20,000 nucleotides of DNA. Source: an uncultured virus (IMG/VR IMGVR_UViG_3300027770_000057). Its lineage: Duplodnaviria; Heunggongvirae; Uroviricota; Caudoviricetes. A program made the position numbers and the translations under genes. Under the pieces are notes generated by a model. It searched no databases and was not told the origin of the DNA. It was given only the letters and a program-made list of their open reading frames with translations. Location: positions 52,400 through 72,399 of the IMG/VR virus record IMGVR_UViG_3300027770_000057; one strand, written 5' to 3'. Within the stretch, counting starts at the first letter, position 1. Every line of letters begins with the position of its first letter. Positions 1-19,461 of the stretch are shown in pieces.

Positions 1-1821
1 TTCATAAGTGCTATCATAACTGTATTGTAAATAATTTCCTCCAGCCCTTAAATAAACATAACCTCTTCCAATAGGCCTTTCTTGCATTTCTAAAACATGA
101 GAACCACGCTCCTTGTTATCTTTTTGTGGTGCAGTTAACCTTAAAAATTGACTAGCTGTTTTTTCTTGATCGTTTCTGTCGCTCATGTAAAGTTCAAGGC
201 CATAACCACTTCTTAATTGAATATAAGCATTTGTTGCATTGCTCACAGGAAAATTATTCTCAGTCCTACATTCCATACTTTTTTGGAAAACGCCTTCATC
301 AATCATTTTAAATACATGATTACTAGTAGAATTCATGGTTATTCCACGATTTGAACCACCAGTGCCAGGACATTCAGATAAAGTTTCATCGCATAAAAAT
401 ATTTCATTGTTTAATGCAGATTTTATCCTTATTCCGTTATCAGCAGATCTTACTTTAGATGGTTGTTCATAATCAATCATTGAAATTGAATGACCTGTAC
501 AACTCTTCCAATATGTTCTTCCTAAATACTTATCATTACATCCAAAATCAAAAGATTCTAAAGACCTTTGCCATTCAGGTGTTCCTCTAGGTTCTTCAAC
601 GCTATCATCCATAACAAAAGTATGACCAGATATAGAAAGAAGTTGTATTCCTGTTTGGGGAAGATCACATTTGTTATTCTGAGGTGTCTGTGGTCCTTTT
701 ATTGGCCTACATTCATTTGCTGATTTAAAAAAAGGATTTGTTCCTTTTTGAGTATTTGCGTAAATAGTTCCTTCTGGAGTATCGGGATGACCACCAATTA
801 CATTTTCAGACTGCTTGCCACAACTTACTGGATTAGGGAAACCTTCTGGAGTTTCTTTTGAAAATGGTAAACCAGGTTCTATAATATCAGTTATATAATC
901 AAATCCTTTTGGTTCTTGGAAAGCAGTATCACTTTGTGGCGTTAAAGCAGTAACATCTTCATTGATATTTGGTTCTTTCGCATCAACATAACAATTTGTA
1001 CTACCATCTCTGGTTCCATCTCCACATTGAGGATGTGCCCATTGACCAGCGTAGTGTAAATGATCATCTTTAAAAATCATCCAATTACCACACCCAGATA
1101 AAAGCTCCATCCTTTTCCACTTCCTATTGCATTTACCATCACCATCAACCATTTTAAGCATGTGTTTTTCAGGAGTTTTAAAACCATAAATATTTGGAAA
1201 AGTAGCTCTTTTTAATGCATCTAAATTATTATCTATATCTGTAATTGATGTAATGTCATATCCATTATAACTTTCAGTATTCCAAGGAGGTAAAACTTGC
1301 GAGCCATTGTTAGGGCCAACTAAATAATTATTTCTTTTTCTTTCATATAAAACATCGTATTCTTCAACTGGTATACCCCAAGCATGGCTTCCATCAGCAC
1401 CTCTATCTCTTGTCCATGTTGTTCCAATATAATAAGCAGATTCTTTATTTCCATGCTCAAAAACTAAACAAACTGTTGATCCTGCTGGAGGAACCCATGA
1501 TGATCCAGAATCATCAAATCCTCCAAATGTACTAATTGGAAATGCCCATGGTAAAGCAGTTACTTCTATCGATTGATTATTTGCATTTCTTGGATTAACT
1601 AAAACTGGATTAAAATATCTTACTCTATTTTGCTTATAAATATCAAATGTATCTATTACAAGAGCAGTGTACATCCCAGTTATTTGCGTGTCTTGTTTTA
1701 CAGTATTAGAAGATTTGTTTAAGAATGTTTGAGGTATTTTGTTTACAGCTAAGCTTAATTCATTAATGTATTTTTCTAAAACTTTTAATTTGCTATCTAG
1801 ACTATTAATTTTATTGATCAT
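1..1821 (-). CDS. Baseplate central spike, T4 gp5/VgrG-like (OB-fold plus beta-prism repeats); 3' end lies beyond the window
   Basis: Not in the ORF track. I read an open minus-strand frame from ATG at 1821 to position 1 (607 codons, no stop). The N-terminal part has the gp5 OB-fold pattern: GMYTALVIDTFDIYKQNRVRYFNP...LPWAFPISTFGG...WVPPAGSTVCLVFEHGNKESAYYIG. It is followed by gp5-type hairpin repeats (SISGHTFVMDD, SCTGHSISMID, STSNHVFKMID, SGYGLELYMSD). AAGG precedes the ATG, and the gene follows the hub-like gene. Confidence 0.88.
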   Translation of the reverse strand, partial: MINKINSLDSKLKVLEKYINELSLAVNKIPQTFLNKSSNTVKQDTQITGMYTALVIDTFDIYKQNRVRYFNPVLVNPRNANNQSIEVTALPWAFPISTFGGFDDSGSSWVPPAGSTVCLVFEHGNKESAYYIGTTWTRDRGADGSHAWGIPVEEYDVLYERKRNNYLVGPNNGSQVLPPWNTESYNGYDITSITDIDNNLDALKRATFPNIYGFKTPEKHMLKMVDGDGKCNRKWKRMELLSGCGNWMIFKDDHLHYAGQWAHPQCGDGTRDGSTNCYVDAKEPNINEDVTALTPQSDTAFQEPKGFDYITDIIEPGLPFSKETPEGFPNPVSCGKQSENVIGGHPDTPEGTIYANTQKGTNPFFKSANECRPIKGPQTPQNNKCDLPQTGIQLLSISGHTFVMDDSVEEPRGTPEWQRSLESFDFGCNDKYLGRTYWKSCTGHSISMIDYEQPSKVRSADNGIRIKSALNNEIFLCDETLSECPGTGGSNRGITMNSTSNHVFKMIDEGVFQKSMECRTENNFPVSNATNAYIQLRSGYGLELYMSDRNDQEKTASQFLRLTAPQKDNKERGSHVLEMQERPIGRGYVYLRAGGNYLQYSYDSTYE

Positions 1822-3536: not shown

Positions 3537-3857
3537 TTATATAGTTCTAGGAACCCTTAAAGTAAGACCTGATTTAAATTCGTAAATATCTTTAATTCCA
3601 TTAAATTCCATTATGTACCACCAATAATCAACCGTTCCATAAGCTGCGTAAGAAACTAAATCAGGCCTGTATTCAGTAGAAGAATTTATTAATACAAATT
3701 TGTCATTTGAACTTGCTGGTATTGGTTTTCTTTTGTATGTTGAAAAAGTTAATTTATTATTATCACCATAATATAAAACTTTTGAATTTATATATCTACT
3801 TGAAAAATCAACAAACCTTTTTGTTGTAATGTCAGGATAAGAAATTTGATTTGCCAA
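3537..3857 (-). CDS. Baseplate wedge subunit, T4 gp53-like (LysM/tail X-type)
   Basis: Motif YRPDLVSYAAYGTVDYWWYIMEFNGIKDIYEFKSGLTLRVP is the typical gp53/LysM pattern. TTG start 5 nt after GGAGG. Confidence 0.85.
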   Translation of the reverse strand: MANQISYPDITTKRFVDFSSRYINSKVLYYGDNNKLTFSTYKRKPIPASSNDKFVLINSSTEYRPDLVSYAAYGTVDYWWYIMEFNGIKDIYEFKSGLTLRVPRTI

Positions 3858-3858
3858 T

Positions 3859-4380
3859 TTATCCTCCTGTTTCTAATATGTTCTTAGAACCTGGTAAATT
3901 AAAAGTTGCATAAACTACTTCAAATGATAATTCAACATCAAATTTCATTGGTAAAAAAGTCGCTTCATCCCACATAACATCAACTGGAAATTTAACATTG
4001 TAACTTTTTAAAACTGCACATAAAGGATTATCTCCAAGGAGATATCCACATTTTATGGTTACTAATGGAGGTGGAACCATCACGGTACTAGTACCTGAAT
4101 CAGGGTAAACTAAGCTTTCTAAAAATCTTAAATCATACAAATTGTACTGAGATTCTTCTTCGCTCTCAGCAAAAAAGTGAACACTCCAACTTATTGACCT
4201 TGTGTCACCATGAGAAAAAACTTTTAATGGTGCAGACCTACCGATGCCACTTTCGTCTGAATAATTAGCTTGTTTTTGATCACTAATATCAGGTAAAATT
4301 TTCATTTCTAAAGTTGTTTTACCTGATTTAATGTAGCAGTCTGTTAATCTTCTTAATTTACCGTTTACTGTTGCTTTCAA
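3859..4380 (-). CDS. Tail tube-fold protein / tube initiator (T4 gp48/gp54, eCIS Afp7-like)
   Basis: Motifs GRSAPLKVFSHGDTRSISWSVHF, PPPLVTIKCG and AVLKSYNVKF...WDE..LPMKFDVELSF are typical of tube-fold initiators. It sits directly upstream of the LysM gene. TTG start preceded by AAGGA. Confidence 0.75.
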   Translation of the reverse strand: MKATVNGKLRRLTDCYIKSGKTTLEMKILPDISDQKQANYSDESGIGRSAPLKVFSHGDTRSISWSVHFFAESEEESQYNLYDLRFLESLVYPDSGTSTVMVPPPLVTIKCGYLLGDNPLCAVLKSYNVKFPVDVMWDEATFLPMKFDVELSFEVVYATFNLPGSKNILETGG

Positions 4381-4409
4381 TTTATTTCCTTTTATTATTA
4401 TTATATAGT
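4381..4409. promoter_or_regulatory. 29-bp divergent spacer with a palindromic TATATA and the RBS of the tube-initiator gene
   Basis: TATATA at 4402-4407 lies 2 nt before ATG 4410 (+) and upstream of AAGGA-AATAAA-TTG (-). Confidence 0.3.
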
Positions 4410-5132
4410 ATGGAATTTACACAAACTAAATTAAAATTTATAGTTACTGGTACTGGTAGATGCGGAACATTGTATTTATCAAAATTATTATCTTTTTGTA
4501 ATACTTTTTGTGGTCATGAAACTATTTTTGATTATTCTTCATGGAACACAATTCTTCAGAGATTGTTTAATGATAAAAAACTAATTTTAAGTAAAATAGC
4601 AAAAGATACCTATGGAGATTACTTAGAAGATAAAAACATCGAAGCTGATTCTAGTTATATGGCAATGCCATACATACACCTTAATATATTCAATAGTTGT
4701 AATTTTATTCATGTAATAAGACATCCAGAAAATGTTATTAATTCGTTTTGTCATTATTTAAATTATTTTTACGATGAATCTTTTTTTTCTTTAAAAGAAT
4801 ATGATAAAAAATATTTAAATTTTATTTATAAAAATGTACCAGATATTAAAAAATATAAAAATCCTTATGATAGAGCAGCATATTTTTATCTCTATTGGAA
4901 TAATCAAATAGAAGAAAAATTAAAAAATAAAAATAAAATATTAATTAAAATTGAAGAAATTAAAAATAATAAATTATTAGAAGATTTTGTTGGAATTAAA
5001 GTACCTGATGATTTTGAAAAAATATCAACAAATAAAATTGAATATAAAAGATTTAAATTAAAAAATATAAAAAATATAAAAATAAGAAATGATATATTTA
5101 ATTTTTGTGAAAAACATGAATATAATTATTAA
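4410..5132 (+). CDS. PAPS-dependent sulfotransferase family protein
   Basis: 5'-PSB loop FIVTGTGRCGTLYLSKLL, then GHE, and the 3'-PB motif FIHVIRHPENVINSF. I chose ATG 4410 because the track start at 4371 overlaps the divergent gene and adds low-complexity residues. Confidence 0.8.
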   Translation: MEFTQTKLKFIVTGTGRCGTLYLSKLLSFCNTFCGHETIFDYSSWNTILQRLFNDKKLILSKIAKDTYGDYLEDKNIEADSSYMAMPYIHLNIFNSCNFIHVIRHPENVINSFCHYLNYFYDESFFSLKEYDKKYLNFIYKNVPDIKKYKNPYDRAAYFYLYWNNQIEEKLKNKNKILIKIEEIKNNKLLEDFVGIKVPDDFEKISTNKIEYKRFKLKNIKNIKIRNDIFNFCEKHEYNY

Positions 5133-5416
5133 TGAGAATAAACAACAAGAAAAAATTTAAGAAATATATTAAATCTTGTTTTTTTTGCAATGAAAGTAAC
5201 TTGAACTTACTTGATGTTCATAGAATTTATGAAGGTCATAAAGGAGGTGGATACTACCACGAAAATGTTTTAGTTATTTGTGCAAATTGCCACAGAAAAG
5301 TTCATGCAAGTGAAATTTATAATATTAAAAAATATAAATCTTATGGTGGTATTAGCTTGTTTCAAGTAATGTATTTTATTGAAGATAAAGAATATTTTAA
5401 GCCTTGTGATTATTAA
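5132..5416 (+). CDS. Small Zn-binding HNH endonuclease-like protein
   Basis: C16xxC19, LDVH30R31I, GG.Y...N45 and C50xxC53H54xxxH58. The start overlaps the sulfotransferase stop (TAATG at 5130-5134). Confidence 0.8.
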   Translation: MRINNKKKFKKYIKSCFFCNESNLNLLDVHRIYEGHKGGGYYHENVLVICANCHRKVHASEIYNIKKYKSYGGISLFQVMYFIEDKEYFKPCDY

Positions 5417-6021
5417 TCGCTTAATTTAAATGGAGCTTTTTTTCCTGCATTATTAAATTTTTCATTATCTGGTTTATCTTTTCTACCTTTTATATGTTTT
5501 ATGCTAAATGGCTTATCATCCATAGCATCGTTATGCTTTTCATTGTCTGGCTTATCTTTTCTACCTTTTATATGTTTTATGCTAAATGGATGCCCATCCA
5601 TAGCATCGTTATGTCTTTCATTGTTTTTTTTATGTTGCGTTGGTTTTAAATGACTTATATTAAAAAGACCACCATCTCCAGAAGCATTATGTTTCCAATT
5701 ATCAGTTGGTTTGCCATTGCCTTTTATGTGAGTTATTTTAAAAGGTGATTTTTCCCCAGCCTTATTGTGTATTTCATTATTATTGTTTGGTTGCTTTGGC
5801 TTTAAATGATTAATTTTAAAAGGATTTTTTTCGCCAATATTATTCCATAAACGATCATCTTTACTTATGTATAAAATTGCATCAGCAGAAGCTGGAATAA
5901 AATAAGCTGGTGGCAGTAAACATAATCCACCATATCCACATGGATACAGAAGTGTCTTTCCAGCAGTTGCACCTTCTACTATTTTATTTTCTTCTTGTAT
6001 TAGCCATTTTTTAAATGTCAT
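5413..6021 (-). CDS. Hypothetical protein with 5.5 His-containing 26-aa tandem repeats; possible internal head protein
   Basis: 202-aa ORF with N-terminus MTFKKWLIQEE. The C-terminal repeats follow HN.AG....PF.I.H(I/L)K.......N.. at an exact 26-aa period. Confidence 0.8.
   Translation of the reverse strand: MTFKKWLIQEENKIVEGATAGKTLLYPCGYGGLCLLPPAYFIPASADAILYISKDDRLWNNIGEKNPFKINHLKPKQPNNNNEIHNKAGEKSPFKITHIKGNGKPTDNWKHNASGDGGLFNISHLKPTQHKKNNERHNDAMDGHPFSIKHIKGRKDKPDNEKHNDAMDDKPFSIKHIKGRKDKPDNEKFNNAGKKAPFKLSD
5459..5613. repeat. Near-perfect 78-bp tandem duplication within the repeat-protein gene
   Basis: ttttcattatctggtttatcttttctaccttttatatgttttatgctaaatgg...catccatagcatcgttatg recurs 78 nt later with only a few substitutions. 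More diverged copies extend to about 5850. Confidence 0.9.
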
Positions 6022-6055: not shown

Positions 6056-12913
<6,858 letters not shown>

Positions 12914-12937: not shown

Positions 12938-13423
12938 TTATAATCTAGTTATTTGATCAGCGTTTATATTTGTATTGTTATTTATTTGATTACTAACATC
13001 ATTTCTAATAATACTTGCTTCTTTTGGTGTTAAAACTCTTGCAATTCCAATAATGTTTAAAAAAGCATCACAATCAAATATTTTAACGCTTCGCATTCCA
13101 ACTTTTTTATATTTCCTATAAGCTTTTATTATATATCCACTTCCTTTTACTAAATTGTATCCAAAGTTAGGATTTCCACAGGCATTGAATTTTTTGCCAA
13201 GAAGTTCTTTTATTGTATAAAATGTTAATGCGTGTATGTTTAAGCCAGAAATATATTTAGTAGTAAGCTTAGTTACTATTATGGTAGGATATGGGTCATG
13301 TTTAAAGAAGTCATATTTGAATGCAATTATAGAACCTTTTCCTAATGTTTTAGGCCCTAGTCTTTTAGTTGATTTACCAAAATCTTTTGGTAAATCTTTT
13401 GAATAGAAAGGATCTTCAGCCAT
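12938..13423 (-). CDS. DNA end protector protein, T4 gp2-like
   Basis: Pattern GSIIAFKY...D.YPTIIV...ISGLNIHAL...YNLVK...IIKAYRKYK resembles gp2 (F.Y, D.FPL, GLNLHY, K.Y). I placed the start at ATG 13423 (MAEDPF, 161 aa), 1 nt after the upstream stop, instead of the track's 13528. Confidence 0.65.
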   Translation of the reverse strand: MAEDPFYSKDLPKDFGKSTKRLGPKTLGKGSIIAFKYDFFKHDPYPTIIVTKLTTKYISGLNIHALTFYTIKELLGKKFNACGNPNFGYNLVKGSGYIIKAYRKYKKVGMRSVKIFDCDAFLNIIGIARVLTPKEASIIRNDVSNQINNNTNINADQITRL

Positions 13424-13424
13424 A

Positions 13425-13934
13425 TTAAAGACCAAATCCATTTTTGGAGTAAACTTGGTTTGAATAATCAGTACCAGTATTTCTAACAACGATTGAGCCA
13501 GCTTTATCACCAGCAGATTGACCATCAATAATTTTTCCCATTAATTCATCTTCTGCAAATTTAGAGTGTTTGAAAAACTTTCTAATTTCCAATGCAACTT
13601 CTTTAACTAATGTTTCAGTAGCTTCTTTTTTTTCAGCTTCGACATTACATATTTGATTGAATAAATCATTAATATCTAAAGCTCTAGCTAATCCATATGG
13701 TAAAGTTTCTTTTGTTTTGCAAACTTGAAATGACATAGTTTGACCATTTTCAAATATTCTAATTCCTTCAAAATCTAAATTATTCAAAGGATTAAAACAA
13801 AATATATATGGCTTTGATTCACCTAGAAAAGAATCTACTCTTAATCCATCTTTTTCAAGAATCTTTTTTACTAGATTAAGTCTTTCTTCTGTTTCTTTAT
13901 GTTGTGCAAAGGCAAATTCTAAAAAAGTTTTCAT
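13425..13934 (-). CDS. Hypothetical protein with a T4 capsid-targeting-like N-terminus
   Basis: 169-aa ORF tightly packed in the operon. It starts MKTFLEF. I recognise no catalytic motif. Confidence 0.75.
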   Translation of the reverse strand: MKTFLEFAFAQHKETEERLNLVKKILEKDGLRVDSFLGESKPYIFCFNPLNNLDFEGIRIFENGQTMSFQVCKTKETLPYGLARALDINDLFNQICNVEAEKKEATETLVKEVALEIRKFFKHSKFAEDELMGKIIDGQSAGDKAGSIVVRNTGTDYSNQVYSKNGFGL

Positions 13935-13937
13935 AGT

Positions 13938-15266
13938 TTAGCAATTTCTAAGCAACATTTCAGGTGCAGAAGGAATGCATCTTTGCAAAACTTTCAAATC
14001 ACTTGGGTTGCCATTATAAGGTATAGATTTAATGTTAATACCAGTAAAAGAATAAGCAGCTTCTTTTACAATTTCTTCACTGGCAATTAAAAATAGAACG
14101 CCATCTCTTCTTGCCATAAATTCTATATTTTGCTTAATAGGTTTTCCTGATTCATCAAGTTCACCAGTATCTTTTTGATATAATATTTTAACATCAGAAG
14201 CAGTAATAATATTATTATCTTTATCAATAATCGCTTCTGAGTTTTCATTTTCATAAAACTGAACAATTATCTTGCCTTTGTTATATGCAGATTTCAATGC
14301 TGTAGAAAGATCTAATCCCAGCATGAATATAGTTCCATCTTCATTAACAACATTTACTAAAAAAGACCTTTTTTTAAAGAAGCTAGAAATGCTATCAATT
14401 ATAATTCTTTTTCTTAGAATATCTTTTTCTTCAGGTGCTCCATTTTCTAATCTTTCTATTTCTGAATCAGATAGATATTTTTCTGGTTCATCAGCAGTCA
14501 TGAACCATCTTCCTAGATCAACAGATCCAAATTTAGAATTCATTCTAGTTGAAATCTTAATTGAATAATCTTTTTGATTAAATACTAAATCTTCATTTAA
14601 GCCACCAGATCCAACTTGAACTGATAACAGCAAGGAGGCTATGAATTTTCTATGTAGATCGCCTTTTAGTCCATGAAGTCCAATTAGCTTAATGAATACA
14701 TTTGCAACATCAGGAGAGCTTTGTAAGCTATTGATTATGTGGTTAGTCAAAGAAACAGAAGGATTGTTTTGATCTAATTCTTCTTTTATTAATTTTCTAA
14801 TTTCGTTAGATACTTTTTCAATATTAGCTTGTTGTCTTAAAAAGCAAATTTGAAGATTATCTTCAACAAACTTTCTACGATGTGGATCAAGATCATAATC
14901 TCTTACTTTTTGAATCATATTAATAAGTTTGTTTGTATCGCCTTTAATAGTTTCTTTAAAGTAATCACTTTCCCAAGTATCATAATCAAAGTCTTTTGCT
15001 TCTTCTGGCATATCAGGAGAAGCTGGATCATTTGATGGATCTGGTTTATCTGCTGGTTTTGGTTCAAGTTGTTCAGGGGCACTACCAGAGATTTTATCAT
15101 TTAAGTTTGCAACATTATTATCTTCTGATGGTGGCATTTTAGCTCCAGCACCTGGTAAAAATGCTTGTTGGGAATCTGATGGAACACCAGCAAGTGATTC
15201 AGGGCCACCGCCAACGACAGGATCTTGTTCATTAATTAGCCATGCTTCAAGAATCGATATATTCAT
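13938..15266 (-). CDS. Hypothetical protein with an acidic Pro-rich N-terminal linker; possible virion protein
   Basis: 442-aa ORF. The N-terminal WLINE is followed by about 75 aa of P/D/S/G-rich low complexity and then a globular region. Confidence 0.8.
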   Translation of the reverse strand: MNISILEAWLINEQDPVVGGGPESLAGVPSDSQQAFLPGAGAKMPPSEDNNVANLNDKISGSAPEQLEPKPADKPDPSNDPASPDMPEEAKDFDYDTWESDYFKETIKGDTNKLINMIQKVRDYDLDPHRRKFVEDNLQICFLRQQANIEKVSNEIRKLIKEELDQNNPSVSLTNHIINSLQSSPDVANVFIKLIGLHGLKGDLHRKFIASLLLSVQVGSGGLNEDLVFNQKDYSIKISTRMNSKFGSVDLGRWFMTADEPEKYLSDSEIERLENGAPEEKDILRKRIIIDSISSFFKKRSFLVNVVNEDGTIFMLGLDLSTALKSAYNKGKIIVQFYENENSEAIIDKDNNIITASDVKILYQKDTGELDESGKPIKQNIEFMARRDGVLFLIASEEIVKEAAYSFTGINIKSIPYNGNPSDLKVLQRCIPSAPEMLLRNC

Positions 15267-15764: not shown

Positions 15765-16250
15765 ATGGTTTTAAAAAATAATAATAATAATGATGCATTT
15801 CAAGCAAATTATAATTTCTTGCAACTTAGCGATTCTATTAAAGAAATTGCAGTTATGATTTCAAAAACTGATATTCATTTGGAAAATATAAAAGCTCAGC
15901 AATTTGAGTCTATAAAAAAAATCGAGAGAATTGAAGAATTTATGAATAATTTTTCAAATTTAGAAAATAAAATTAAAATTATAGAGCAAAAAGATTTGGT
16001 TATTATTAATAAAGAAATTGATTATCTTAAATCTGAATTTGATAAAGCAAAAGATTGCATTGATGAGTTATTTAAAAAAATTGATAGTCATAAGACTAAG
16101 ATATGGGAAGTTAAAGGAGACACAAGAGAAATTAAAGTTTTCAATGAAGATTTTAAAAGCAGGTTAAAGTTTATGGCAGATTTATTTTTTAAAATTGCAA
16201 TTGGATTATTCTTAAGTTTCGCAGCATATAAAATGGGATGGGAAAAATGA
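15765..16250 (+). CDS. Coiled-coil protein with a C-terminal transmembrane anchor (XhlA/holin-like topology)
   Basis: The K/E/I-rich heptad body ends in LFFKIAIGLFLSFAAYKMGW. Confidence 0.7.
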   Translation: MVLKNNNNNDAFQANYNFLQLSDSIKEIAVMISKTDIHLENIKAQQFESIKKIERIEEFMNNFSNLENKIKIIEQKDLVIINKEIDYLKSEFDKAKDCIDELFKKIDSHKTKIWEVKGDTREIKVFNEDFKSRLKFMADLFFKIAIGLFLSFAAYKMGWEK

Positions 16251-17524
16251 ATATATTTGAAAATGAAGATTACATGCCAAAAGTAAAATTACAGAAGAAG
16301 TCTACTGTTCCTTACTTGAAGCCATTTTTTGTAAATAGTCAGACTAATTCTGCTTTGCAGCCTATTATTGATAGTTTCAACAATTCTGATTCTGTAAATG
16401 TTGGGTATACGACTATAAAAAAAGATGGAGAGGAAGAATCTCCATCTTTGAAAAAGAAAACTATTTGGCTTACTGGAAGTTCTTTAAGAAATCATTTATC
16501 AAATGAAACATTTTACAATTACACTTGTGTAACAAATGCTTCTCCAGATGAAATTAAAATGATTTTAAATCAATCAAGTTATGATTTTCAGCAAGTTAAA
16601 CCTAAAGGAGAAATTGGAAATATAGAAAAATATAAAAATTTACCTGATGAAACTAATGATAAATATTTTTTTTATATAAGTAAAGTAGATGAGCAAAACA
16701 ACGAAATGGAAGTTACAGCATCTGTTTCTGGAAATCTTGTTTACATAAGTACTTTAAACAGCAATATTAAATTTAAAATTGGCAATGATAAACTTAGAAA
16801 ATTTACTTCATCTATTTCTGAAGATGCAAAAGGAAGAGATTTTTCTGTTAATGCTATTTATTTAAAGCTTAAAGATTCAAATGGCAACAACAATGATATT
16901 TCTGATCCTGTTGGAGGAATGCATGATATTGCCAACAATAATATTAAATTATTAAATTCAACTTCGTTTACATTTAAAACAAATCCAGCTTTGATTATTA
17001 CTTTTTGCGAATTAAGTTCAAAGTTTAATAAAGATAAAAAGATAGAAAGAAGTGATTTAGTTTCAATTAAAAAAAACATTGATAATTTTAAAGATTATCC
17101 AAAACTATTTATTAGAACTTTAAGAAATTCAGTTAATAGTTCATCTACTCCAATATTTAGTTTTTTAAATAATCTTTATATTACTGGGATGTTTGGAAAA
17201 ATGTTTTCAGGTCTTAAAATAAGTTTGCCTCACATGGGATTACCTAGATATTTTGATTTTGTAATTGGTTATTTATTACACGAGAATGAAAAAGAAAAAG
17301 TATCTATGGTTTTGTCTGAATTAGATTTTAATAAATTTGATATTAAAGAAGTTGAATTTACTATGGATTTAACAAAATGGATTAAAACAGAAGACGATTC
17401 AATACTTAAATCTTTGCTTGATAATCAAAACAATCAATCTATAAATAAAATATACAATTATTTAAAATCTTTTGGAAAAGATGTTATTTTTAAGAATGCA
17501 GCTAAAAAATATTTAGAAATGTAA
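16247..17524 (+). CDS. CCA-adding enzyme / poly(A) polymerase (class II nucleotidyltransferase) homologue with a degenerate active site
   Basis: Scaffold motifs IWLTGSSLRNHL...CVTNASPDEI, EDAKGRDFSVNAIY and DPVGGMHDI. The likely start is ATG 16247 (ATGA overlap with the upstream stop); the track start is 16238. Confidence 0.85.
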   Translation: MNIFENEDYMPKVKLQKKSTVPYLKPFFVNSQTNSALQPIIDSFNNSDSVNVGYTTIKKDGEEESPSLKKKTIWLTGSSLRNHLSNETFYNYTCVTNASPDEIKMILNQSSYDFQQVKPKGEIGNIEKYKNLPDETNDKYFFYISKVDEQNNEMEVTASVSGNLVYISTLNSNIKFKIGNDKLRKFTSSISEDAKGRDFSVNAIYLKLKDSNGNNNDISDPVGGMHDIANNNIKLLNSTSFTFKTNPALIITFCELSSKFNKDKKIERSDLVSIKKNIDNFKDYPKLFIRTLRNSVNSSSTPIFSFLNNLYITGMFGKMFSGLKISLPHMGLPRYFDFVIGYLLHENEKEKVSMVLSELDFNKFDIKEVEFTMDLTKWIKTEDDSILKSLLDNQNNQSINKIYNYLKSFGKDVIFKNAAKKYLEM

Positions 17525-17536
17525 TTATTTTAAAGT

Positions 17537-18385
17537 ATGCACTTTTTAACAATAGCAGAAGATACTCCTTATTATCAATGGCAAATTGAATTATTAATTG
17601 AATCGTTCAAGATGAAAAAACTTGAAGACAAATTATTCATATATCTTATAAAGACTGAAAATTCAGTTGATGGTATAAAAAACAACATTAATAGTCATCC
17701 TAATTTATTTTATTACAATTCAGATAGGATAAAAACTTGTAGTTTAAATTTTGATTTTCATCAATGTATTTTAAATTATAGAAATAATTTTCCACTAGAA
17801 AATTTTATGATTTTAGATACTGATAACTTATTAAAAAACATTGATGAATCTGATTTTAATTTACAAAATTTAGTTTATCAGATTGATCAAAAGGAAAACG
17901 ATGAGTTGTCTTTAATATTAAAACTATCAAGAAGTAAATATAATTATAGTTTTTATCCTATGACATCGATTATTTACTTTAGTGCATTTTATTCATATGA
18001 TTTTTTCAAATCTGCATTTTTAATACTAGAAGACTTAATTAAAATTTCTTTTTTTTGTAATATTGATAATGAAAAACATGAACCAGATTTAGATTTATAT
18101 AAATATTCTTATTTGATTCTTTCATTAATGTATAACATTAAAGTTAATCCTTCATATAAGCTTTTAAATTATGCATATGAAGGCACTGACATGGATGTAA
18201 ATTTTATTTCTTACAAGCATGATGTTAAACCTTACTTTTATAAAAAAAATTACTTTCAAAAGGATTTTAAAAATCTATCTTTGAGTTATACTGACCCATT
18301 TGAAAACATGTTAGATTTACCAGATTTTGTTGGTTGTTCTTTTATAAAAAGCATTGTTTTAAGTTATCAAAATTTTTCTGATTGA
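17537..18385 (+). CDS. Putative GT-A glycosyltransferase, HPAT/SGT1 (GT95/GT96)-like
   Basis: N-terminus MHFLTIAEDTPYYQWQIELLIESF resembles the H...S/T.E/D..Y..WQ...L..S motif of plant SGT1/HPAT domains. The DxD motif is FMILD94TD96. Confidence 0.6.
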   Translation: MHFLTIAEDTPYYQWQIELLIESFKMKKLEDKLFIYLIKTENSVDGIKNNINSHPNLFYYNSDRIKTCSLNFDFHQCILNYRNNFPLENFMILDTDNLLKNIDESDFNLQNLVYQIDQKENDELSLILKLSRSKYNYSFYPMTSIIYFSAFYSYDFFKSAFLILEDLIKISFFCNIDNEKHEPDLDLYKYSYLILSLMYNIKVNPSYKLLNYAYEGTDMDVNFISYKHDVKPYFYKKNYFQKDFKNLSLSYTDPFENMLDLPDFVGCSFIKSIVLSYQNFSD

Positions 18386-19461
18386 GTTAAAGCACTAGCT
18401 ACTACTTGATCCATATTATAATATTGATATTTTCCTAATCTTCCGCCAAATATAATTTGATCATCATTCATTAGGCTAACATATTTTTCATAGATTTCTT
18501 TATTTTTACTTGTTGGTACTGGATAATATGGTTCATTGCCTTCTTGAACATTATAATCCTGTGGATATTCTTTTGTTATCCATGATCCAGTTACTGTTTC
18601 ATCGTGAAAGAACTTAGATTCAAATATTCTAGTATAAGGTATTTTTTCATCTGTATAATTAATAATAGAATTTCCTTGATAATCATTTTTATGAAATGTT
18701 TCTTCAAATCTCAATGATCTATACTCAAGCAACCCATAAGAATAATTGAAATATTGATCTACCTTACCAGAGTAAATTATTTTCTTATAATTTTTTAAAT
18801 AAAAGTTTTTGTTTTCAAAGAAATCTGTATTTAAAATAACTTTGATTTTTGGATTATCTAAAAGTTTTTCAAATATTTCAGTATATCCATTTGTTGGTAT
18901 ACCTTCAAATTTGTCATCAAAATATCTATCATTGTAATTTAATCTAATTGGTATTCTTTTAATTATAGAAACTGGTAATTCTTTTGGATCTTTATTCCAT
19001 TGTTTTTTCGTATATCCTTTTATAAAAATTTCATAAAGCTCTCTGCCGATATTTGCCAAACAAAATTCTTCTAAGTTTTTAGGATCAGCTATACTTAACT
19101 TTTTATCTTCAAGGATACTCTTGGCATGGTCAGGAGTAATACAACCATAGACTTGATTTAAAGTAAAAAGATTTATTGGAAATGAATATAGTTTGTCTTC
19201 ATAAATAACTTTAGTATGTTGTTTTTTATTGTTAAATTTTACAATTCCATTCATGTATGACCAAATTCTTTGATTGTTTGTATGGAATATATGAGGGCCA
19301 TACTTGTGTACTGGTATATTATTTTTAATTTCAGTATAACAGTTGCCACCAAAATGATTTCTTTTGTCTAAGACATCTACAAAATATCCTTTTTTAGCTA
19401 ATTCGCTAGCTAATACTGAGCCATAAAGACCAGAACCTACAACAAGAATTTTATGCTTCAT
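18367..19461 (-). CDS. glf: UDP-galactopyranose mutase
   Basis: FAD-binding VVGSGLYG, GGNCY, HKYGPHIFHT, YTKKQW, RYFDDKFEGIP..GYT, LEYRSLRF, EPYYP and GRLGKYQYYNMDQVV. Confidence 0.97.
   Translation of the reverse strand: MKHKILVVGSGLYGSVLASELAKKGYFVDVLDKRNHFGGNCYTEIKNNIPVHKYGPHIFHTNNQRIWSYMNGIVKFNNKKQHTKVIYEDKLYSFPINLFTLNQVYGCITPDHAKSILEDKKLSIADPKNLEEFCLANIGRELYEIFIKGYTKKQWNKDPKELPVSIIKRIPIRLNYNDRYFDDKFEGIPTNGYTEIFEKLLDNPKIKVILNTDFFENKNFYLKNYKKIIYSGKVDQYFNYSYGLLEYRSLRFEETFHKNDYQGNSIINYTDEKIPYTRIFESKFFHDETVTGSWITKEYPQDYNVQEGNEPYYPVPTSKNKEIYEKYVSLMNDDQIIFGGRLGKYQYYNMDQVVASALTQSEKF

Follow-up and report, generated by a model that had tools for sequence, protein, structure and literature searches.

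A candidate CCA-enzyme-derived pseudoenzyme retained under selection in a huge-phage lineage

Results

Gene and motifs at the locus

We analyzed a 20,000-nucleotide (nt) stretch of DNA from an uncultured Caudoviricetes virus (IMG/VR record IMGVR_UViG_3300027770_000057, positions 52,400 to 72,399), hereafter the window. One of its plus-strand genes encodes a homologue of CCA-adding enzymes and poly(A) polymerases in which most catalytic residues have been replaced, and this gene, the query, is the subject of the present analysis. Its open reading frame (ORF) of 428 amino acids (aa) is open over 16238..17524, while a second in-frame ATG (16247-16249) meets the upstream TGA (16248-16250) in an ATGA overlap. 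An earlier note on this DNA, made by a model from the letters and a list of ORFs, had placed the start at 16247 and had described the gene as translationally coupled to a membrane-anchored protein. The ATGA is real, and the start is plausible, both from that overlap and because the homologues P0006 and P0010 begin at the Met corresponding to 16247 in alignment A1 (28 sequences). Residue numbers are counted here from 16238; in this numbering, all eight motif strings quoted in the note are found where it had put them.

The positions and present readings of the motifs are collected in Table 1. Tyr169 stands opposite the Glu of 10 canonical sequences and of seven intact family members, the strings TNASPDEI and RDFSVNAIY occupy residues 99-106 and 200-208, respectively, and the query's DPVGGMHDI matches the DxxGGxxD(L/I) spring element that defines motif C. 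Across the 102 sequences of alignment A2, R84, D196, R200, D201, N205, and motif C are kept. The query N-terminus reads M(GKM)NIFENEDYMPKVKL, and residues 18-74 hold 11/35 invariant columns of A1; within the head insertion, K121, P122, Y132, L135, P136, F145, and D151 are near-invariant in the same alignment.

Table 1. Coordinates of the query gene, its motifs, and neighboring genes in the window
Feature	Position	Residues	Strand	Basis or remark
Candidate CCA-adding/poly(A)-polymerase-like pseudoenzyme gene	16247..17524		+	PF01743, AlphaFold2 model, Z 24 to 4x4w_B, ATGA
Family-specific N-terminal extension, with inserted hairpin VGYTTIKKDGEEESPSLKKK	16247..16462	to 75	+	conservation highest in the protein
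Former motif A, GGxVRD now GSSLRN	16475..16492	80-85	+	phmmer and alignments
Former metal-binding DxD, now N94-Y-T96	16517..16525		+	phmmer and alignments
Family-specific head-domain insertion, QVKPKGEIGNIEKYKNLP...FFYISKVDEQNNE	16580..16700	~115-155	+	in all family groups, not in canonical enzymes
Former third-carboxylate strand, E(I/V)(A/T)TFR type now YISTLN	16742..16759	169-174	+	alignments
Motif B remnant, RRD now G199-R-D	16832..16840		+	first Arg gone; R200 and D201 kept
Motif C-like DPVGGMHDI, kept	16904..16930	223-231	+	D223 and G227 invariant in A2
Former templating motif D, EDxxR now T248-N-P-A-L252	16979..16993		+	alignments
Upstream partner gene, 161-aa coiled-coil-like protein with putative C-terminal hydrophobic anchor	15765..16250		+	synteny, alignment A4, hydropathy
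Downstream same-strand gene, 282 aa	17537..18385		+	cluster 6, 28 ORFs of related loci
442-aa protein gene	13938-15266		-	most conserved gene of the neighborhood
2285-aa ORF with a run of 17 Gly and several hydrophobic segments	6056-12913		-	no family match

Homology and predicted fold

The Pfam family PF01743 (PolyA_pol) matched residues 76-236 over profile positions 1-125 of 126 (E 3.6e-13, 50.4 bits vs. a cutoff of 23), and a partial PHROGs match to phrog_2244 "tRNA nucleotidyltransferase" (5.6e-10) covered residues 189-283 only. The NCBIfam CCA and PcnB models all scored far below their cutoffs (top 41.6 vs. 305.65 bits; the rest 12-34 vs. 290-702), and PADLOC gave no match for the protein. 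In a phmmer alignment with Escherichia coli poly(A) polymerase (3aqm), GSSLRN fell on GGGVRD and Y-N-Y-T on K-D-F-D.

An AlphaFold2 model built from the 102-sequence alignment reached a mean predicted local distance difference test score (pLDDT) of 94.8 and a predicted template modeling score of 0.90. When this model was compared with the PDB by Foldseek, the first 46 rows were all CCA-adding enzymes, A-adding enzymes, or poly(A) polymerases (top 4wby, E 5.8e-11). With VIA-align, residues 15-428 of the model aligned to residues 3-360 of the human mitochondrial CCA-adding enzyme TRNT1 (4x4w_B) at Z 24.0 (327 aligned, root-mean-square deviation 4.2), and 27 class II entries of the same three kinds were found at Z 16-24, with matches starting at residue 10 to 42 and ending at 426-428. 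Since the structural matches span nearly the entire model, the whole head-neck-body-tail architecture is predicted to be retained. The profile match, the model, and the structural alignment thus bear out the earlier description of an intact, full-length homologue.

Class II tRNA nucleotidyltransferases require the DxD carboxylates, RRD, and EDxxR. As these are gone from the query, its product should be unable to add CCA.

Graded catalytic loss across a huge-phage family

Twenty-seven relatives were found at E <= 0.001 among 5025 candidates, and an exhaustive search returned 159 representatives, 48 of them at E <= 1e-10. The 72 loci examined lie in viral contigs of which the longest is 533 kb, and the family is assigned to a huge-phage lineage. 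The window's own record is 72.4 kb long and an estimated 14% complete; a 197.5-kb record shares 7,284 nt with the window at 100% identity. Four traits mark the family, for which we found no public name, and are absent from canonical enzymes, namely an N-terminal extension with a hairpin (GY..TT..K..G...P.LKKK), a His after motif A (RDH/RNH), a Tyr between the metal positions, and a head insertion of ~35 residues (KP...Y..LP). The alignments place the hairpin extension, the RDH/RNH reading, and the head insertion in the query.

To follow the loss of catalytic residues, we scored ten positions (D85, D94, D96, E169, R199, R200, D201, E248, D249, and R252) on a tree of 58 rows, i.e., 83 minus those at least 90% identical (IQ-TREE quick search, LG+G4), rooted on 10 canonical enzymes. 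All 10 outgroup enzymes scored 10/10. The family, query included, formed a single branch with a Shimodaira-Hasegawa-like approximate likelihood ratio test (SH-aLRT) support of 100. Its seven basal rows retained 9-10 of the scored residues. In a clade of 41 rows (SH-aLRT 100), 2-7 of the ten were retained, D-x-D, R199, and R252 were each kept in 0/41, and two rows (L016 and L019) read E-x-D; an FRxDxxxGDGRxPD loop kept in the basal members was replaced in this clade. Nested within it was a clade of 18 rows (SH-aLRT 100) with 2-5/10 retained, and the lowest state of the series was that of the query and L004, in which R200 and D201 alone remained (2/10). The loss of DxD, RRD, and EDxxR was common to all 10 members of the query clade and to the loci L088-L091, and was milder in the 41-row clade. 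Read from these sequence comparisons, catalytic loss is old, stepwise, and family-wide, and is not private to the query gene.

Selection on the degenerate gene

We analyzed selection among L088-L091, which share the 2/10 state and are 65-68% identical to the query, as the ratio of nonsynonymous to synonymous rates (dN/dS, or omega; Nei-Gojobori). The values were 0.068-0.108 at dS 0.165-0.530. In the same loci, omega was 0.076-0.099 for a Glf-like gene, 0.042-0.064 for a 448-aa neighbor, and 0.095-0.142 for a 279-aa downstream gene. By domain, it was 0.06-0.08 in the N-terminal extension, 0.05-0.09 in the head, 0.03-0.12 in the neck, and 0.09-0.15 in the body and tail. Since orthologues in the same state show dN/dS like that of neighboring genes, the gene behaves as a selected pseudoenzyme and not as a decaying one. 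Within the ten-member query clade, former catalytic positions drift (N/K/S at 85, T/S/V at 96, and T/I/V/A at 248), while G80, R84, N94, Y95, R200, D201, and P250 do not vary. A protein that is still needed but has an apparently dead active site would show this pattern.

Together, the orthologue comparison and dN/dS support the core proposal of the earlier note, a retained non-catalytic role: the residue losses that it had noted in the query turned out to be shared by orthologues, and dN/dS lay in the range of neighboring genes and not near 1.

The upstream gene

A homologue of the upstream protein lies directly 5' of the family gene in 69/72 loci, and the two genes are -4 to +80 nt apart. The protein has a single C-terminal hydrophobic stretch (Kyte-Doolittle 19-residue maximum 1.84, residues 136-154), which is conserved in alignment A4 of 35 homologues and by hydropathy would make it membrane-anchored; it is otherwise poorly conserved, with a mean column identity of 17%. 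A complex prediction for the pseudoenzyme and the upstream protein scored 0.00, which we counted neither for nor against an interaction.

Phosphatase neighbor, leader, second copies, and tRNA genes

In basal and mid-clade loci, the family gene is followed by a gene for the RNA-repair phosphatase HAD_SAK_1, an SprT-like gene, and a cluster-6 gene. The HAD_SAK_1 genes of relatives (Pfam E 2e-8 to 1e-15) have intact DxDGT, MTGR, and (E/D)DR motifs. The 18-row clade has lost both the HAD gene and the SprT gene from the position after the family gene, and in the window the gene next after the pseudoenzyme is the 282-aa cluster-6 gene, not HAD_SAK_1. No PF10307 match was found in the window's 72-kb record (14% complete) or in the four searchable incomplete records of the 18-row clade (14-38% complete).

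The N-terminal leader F..[YWF]h.h[RK]E is carried by basal and mid-clade members, on 34 nucleotidyltransferase-family ORFs, and also by two HAD_SAK_1 proteins and the canonical CCA enzymes L076 and L077 (loci L020-L073; examples of the leader are L043:4926-4970, L046:5194-5260, and L076:1387-1430). Because the regular expression was built from the family itself, only matches beyond it count as independent; the internal control windows yielded 0 matches. The leader is missing in all 18 rows of the 18-row clade, query included. It presumably resembles the capsid-targeting sequence of phage T4 with its (L/I)xE protease site and, if it is such a sequence, RNA-repair proteins may be packaged in the head. 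Beyond the window but in the record that holds it, a 99-aa ORF (G000 13217-13516) shows the pattern as well.

A second PolyA_pol gene was present in 6/16 relatives' records and in 0/2 complete genomes. In G003, G005, G007, and G012 it is a full-length canonical enzyme beside a degenerate member, and these four records fit a role of the degenerate copy other than CCA addition. In G008 (L095) and G010 (L094) it is a short protein of 229-253 aa beside an intact member; both short proteins comprise head and neck only and read GGFVRD, DLD, RRD, and EDSLR. We considered, and rejected, the rule that a dead copy invariably comes with a second, active CCA enzyme: only six of 16 records have a second gene, neither complete genome does, and two of the six have it beside intact members. 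The complete genomes carry 59 and 63 tRNA matches; no tRNA gene was found in the window's 72-kb record (14% complete). A promoter and terminator scan gave 30 promoter-like sites vs. 26.1 expected, an uninformative difference.

Other genes in the window

The 282-aa downstream protein has no Pfam or PHROG match. In the ESM Atlas it matched viral clusters at 0.97, of which 16-40% of members carry HPAT (PF23452), which makes a glycosyltransferase-like function a possible lead from the Atlas only. We count this HPAT-like candidate in a cluster of sugar-related genes, together with a UDP-galactopyranose mutase (18367-19461; Pfam GLF 1e-73) and a weak sulfotransferase-like ORF (4371-5132) that stayed under the cutoff.

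On the other flank, a four-gene block that includes the 442-aa gene is equally syntenic. The 442-aa protein shows 47-85% identity across the lineage, 60% column identity, and an omega of 0.04-0.06; its N-terminus is disordered and rich in Pro, Asp, and Glu, and it matched no family. As a candidate tail sheath it gave no profile match against the PDB and no Foldseek match in the PDB or BFVD at E <= 0.001, and for lack of a sheath match the claim that the pseudoenzyme gene lies in a proven tail module was dropped. A wide VIA search returned short helical matches and a weak one to the restriction endonuclease 3ndh_B (Z 6.8, 164 aligned), and the ESM Atlas returned unnamed viral clusters, with SmaI, HinP1I, and ThaI the nearest named at 0.78-0.79.

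The 2285-aa ORF is probably a tape measure gene, with Phage_base_V (1-1821) and a PHROG of the baseplate wedge (3537-3857) next to it. This baseplate and tape-measure block is interrupted, on the opposite strand, by a small HNH-endonuclease-like ORF (5132-5416, +; PHROG HNH ~2e-5, Pfam HNH under cutoff). A 202-aa protein (5413-6021, -) contains repeats of the type ...KHN.A...PF.I.HIKG.. and has no family match. The minus-strand ORFs 12938-13528 and 13425-13934 (clusters 5 and 4) overlap by ~100 nt when taken from their first start codons; this overlap, 5' of the tape-measure-sized gene, reflects either a mis-set start or a programmed overlap.

Discussion

The gene very probably encodes a selected pseudoenzyme that does not add CCA. 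As to what it does instead, nearly all residues for CCA chemistry are gone, which makes binding rather than catalysis the most likely activity, and we infer a site formed by the old pocket together with the body and tail because R84, D196, R200, D201, N205, motif C, and the tRNA-binding architecture survive. That the protein acts by binding the 3' end of RNA or tRNA, or a nucleotide, is accordingly the reading we lean toward, by a modest balance of probability. What the data show is homology, fold, the residue losses and their nested order, purifying selection, and synteny; that the protein is inactive, binds RNA, or is tied in any way to the membrane protein is inferred.

On this proposal, the ancestor would have been an elaborated CCA-type enzyme of the huge-phage lineage, already fitted with the N-terminal module and head insertion and encoded in a cassette for RNA repair that comprised the small tail-anchored protein, the nucleotidyltransferase, and the HAD_SAK_1 RNA-end phosphatase. 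The earliest losses, in one branch, would have been those of the first metal-binding Asp, the templating Arg, and the Arg that opens RRD; a sub-branch would then have lost the phosphatase neighbor and the N-terminal leader; and the query clade would finally have lost nearly all other catalytic residues. The fold would have stayed under strong purifying selection at all stages, with R84, D196, R200, D201, N205, and motif C kept. The present protein may still grip an RNA 3' end (likeliest of a tRNA or tRNA-like molecule) or a nucleotide, with no addition following, and may work in binding, shielding, or targeting while being expressed together with the upstream membrane-anchored protein.

Several observations weigh against this interpretation. 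E156 (invariant in A1), D196, D201, and D223 are candidate alternative carboxylates for the old metal site, and Asn94 might in principle still touch a metal. RNA binding is suggested by fold retention only, and the C-terminal half, with a net charge of +6 and an isoelectric point of 9.2, does not stand apart from that of active or other family members. The lowest omegas come from the sister sub-clade at 65-68% identity to the query, and pairs with the window itself come close to saturation (dS 1.1-1.3, omega 0.19-0.21). The tree is a quick search made without a mixture model, the query and L004 are of deviant composition, and the polarity of loss hangs on the outgroup root. Lastly, the complete 533-kb relative, with its 59 tRNA matches, holds only a degenerate copy, and a second phage CCA enzyme is therefore not a general rule.

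The alternative that fares best is a protein-protein scaffold, in which the fold would serve a structural or tethering purpose, with the protein kept at the membrane by its upstream neighbor or borne in the virion, and with no RNA ligand. We treat it as a real though minority possibility. In its favor is the linkage to the tail-anchored gene in nearly all loci, with ATGA here; against it, the upstream protein itself is little conserved. Conservation is highest in the N-terminal extension and head insertion and not in the old active site, a further point in its favor; against it stands the retention of R84, D196, R200, D201, and N205 in all 102 sequences of A2, residues that we take to form the nucleotide and primer pocket in the parent family. 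A place in the virion is suggested by the distance of 3.3 kb to the 2285-aa tape-measure-sized ORF and the baseplate genes, by a same-strand gene of tape-measure size after the family gene in 13 loci, and by the leader of basal and mid-clade members, which is found on HAD and canonical CCA proteins of these phages as well. However, the 18-row clade, query included, is without the leader, the genes between the pseudoenzyme and the tape-measure ORF gave no tail-protein identity, and the 442-aa protein among them had no sheath or capsid fold match.

Genes for defence and counter-defence tend to vary and to be patchily distributed. The family gene keeps its synteny and occurs in every one of the 72 loci (a count that is circular for presence, the loci having been fetched through the gene), which speaks against an anti-defence decoy or inhibitor, that is, a mimic of a CCA enzyme or of its tRNA-bound state that would block a host attacker of tRNA ends or a damage sensor. 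PADLOC gave no match, and the host target of such a decoy is not known. On the other side are the strong selection that persists in the absence of catalysis and the ancestral RNA-repair cassette, of a type tied to conflict with host RNases: in jumbo phages, CCA-adding enzymes and HAD phosphatases of the "Swiss-army-knife" type are described as repairing RNA that host RNases have attacked (PMC7824862). We judge a decoy improbable.

We think it quite improbable that the enzyme has been rewired to perform nucleotidyl transfer or another reaction through H86, Y95, E156, and K178 in place of the triad. These four residues are invariant in the 28 sequences of A1 and lie in or near head-domain strands, and two relatives, L016 and L019, read E-x-D. 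But the four are already present in members that keep the triad, and are therefore family features and not replacements; moreover, the query clade lost five motifs together (A, DxD, the third carboxylate, the first Arg of RRD, and EDxxR), and the old catalytic positions drift among close orthologues, as expected of relaxed constraint. Simple decay, a pseudogene still open by chance, has the residue losses alone in its favor and is barely credible, being already refuted by the selection and conservation data (dN/dS 0.07-0.11, orthologues intact down to 66% identity and family members to ~25%, the high-pLDDT model, and conserved synteny).

In large phages, CCA-adding enzymes are as a rule annotated as active in tRNA maturation or repair (PMC7824862, PMC7162821). 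We found no description of catalytically dead CCA-enzyme homologues in phages in a search that left preprint supplements and most subscription journals outside its scope. New here are the lowest grade of the series, a rooted order in which the losses nest, and a loss of the phosphatase neighbor that coincides with that of the leader.

A whole branch of huge-phage "CCA enzymes" thus appears catalytically stripped and yet constrained like housekeeping genes, and counts of phage translation and repair capacity that rely on annotation would be overstated. The natural series, graded from 10/10 to 2/10 catalytic residues on one fold, offers a model for the origin of pseudoenzymes and for function that outlives catalysis, and points to an activity on the ends of tRNA or RNA that is selected but non-catalytic, in phages with ~60 tRNA genes. 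A more speculative and rather doubtful extension is that a core gene of a ~500-kb phage lineage was turned stepwise from a tRNA-end repair enzyme, maybe carried in the virion, into a pure tRNA-end binder, the chemistry being lost first and the leader and phosphatase partner after it, and that the final form, with its membrane-anchored partner, holds, shields, or sorts the 3' ends of phage or host tRNAs. If true, this would be a new, catalysis-free kind of viral control over the tRNA pool.

Among known systems, the Pol-beta-like head fold is shared at a distance with FAM46/TENT5 (weaker, Z 10-11) and with MenT toxins, CD-NTases, and ANT(2'') (Z 5-6). The superposition on class II CCA-adding enzymes, A-adding enzymes, and poly(A) polymerases confirms a common fold at Z 20-24 with 305-332 residues aligned (examples are TRNT1 4x4w/8cbm, Thermotoga maritima 3h3a/5hc9, E. 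coli 3aqm, Aquifex aeolicus 4wby/4wc2, and Geobacillus stearothermophilus 1miv). The query shares with these enzymes the order of motifs, the Gly and Arg of motif A, the helix TNA(S/T)P(D/E)E, the Arg-Asp pair of motif B together with FxxNA, and the DPxGG of motif C. Unlike them, it has 8/10 catalytic and templating residues replaced, carries the additional N-terminal module with its hairpin and the ~35-residue head insertion, and is encoded by a phage gene that adjoins one for a putative tail-anchored membrane protein.

The closest comparison lies within the family itself. The catalytically intact members L065, L066, L070, L071, and L072 (records <=527 kb) share with the query the N-terminal extension, the hairpin (GY..TT..K..GE..P.LKKK), RDH, the head insertion, and the upstream tail-anchored gene. 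They differ in having GGAVRD, D-x-D, FEIATFR, the GDGR(T/R)PD loop, RRD, EDxxR, and the N-terminal leader, and most are followed by the HAD_SAK_1 and SprT-like genes. Half-degenerate members of the NYD/NRD/EDPxT type are strongly conserved and, like the query, have lost the first Asp, the templating Arg, and the Arg that opens RRD, whereas, unlike the query, they have kept GGAVRD and one Asp of DxD, the leader, and the HAD phosphatase neighbor.

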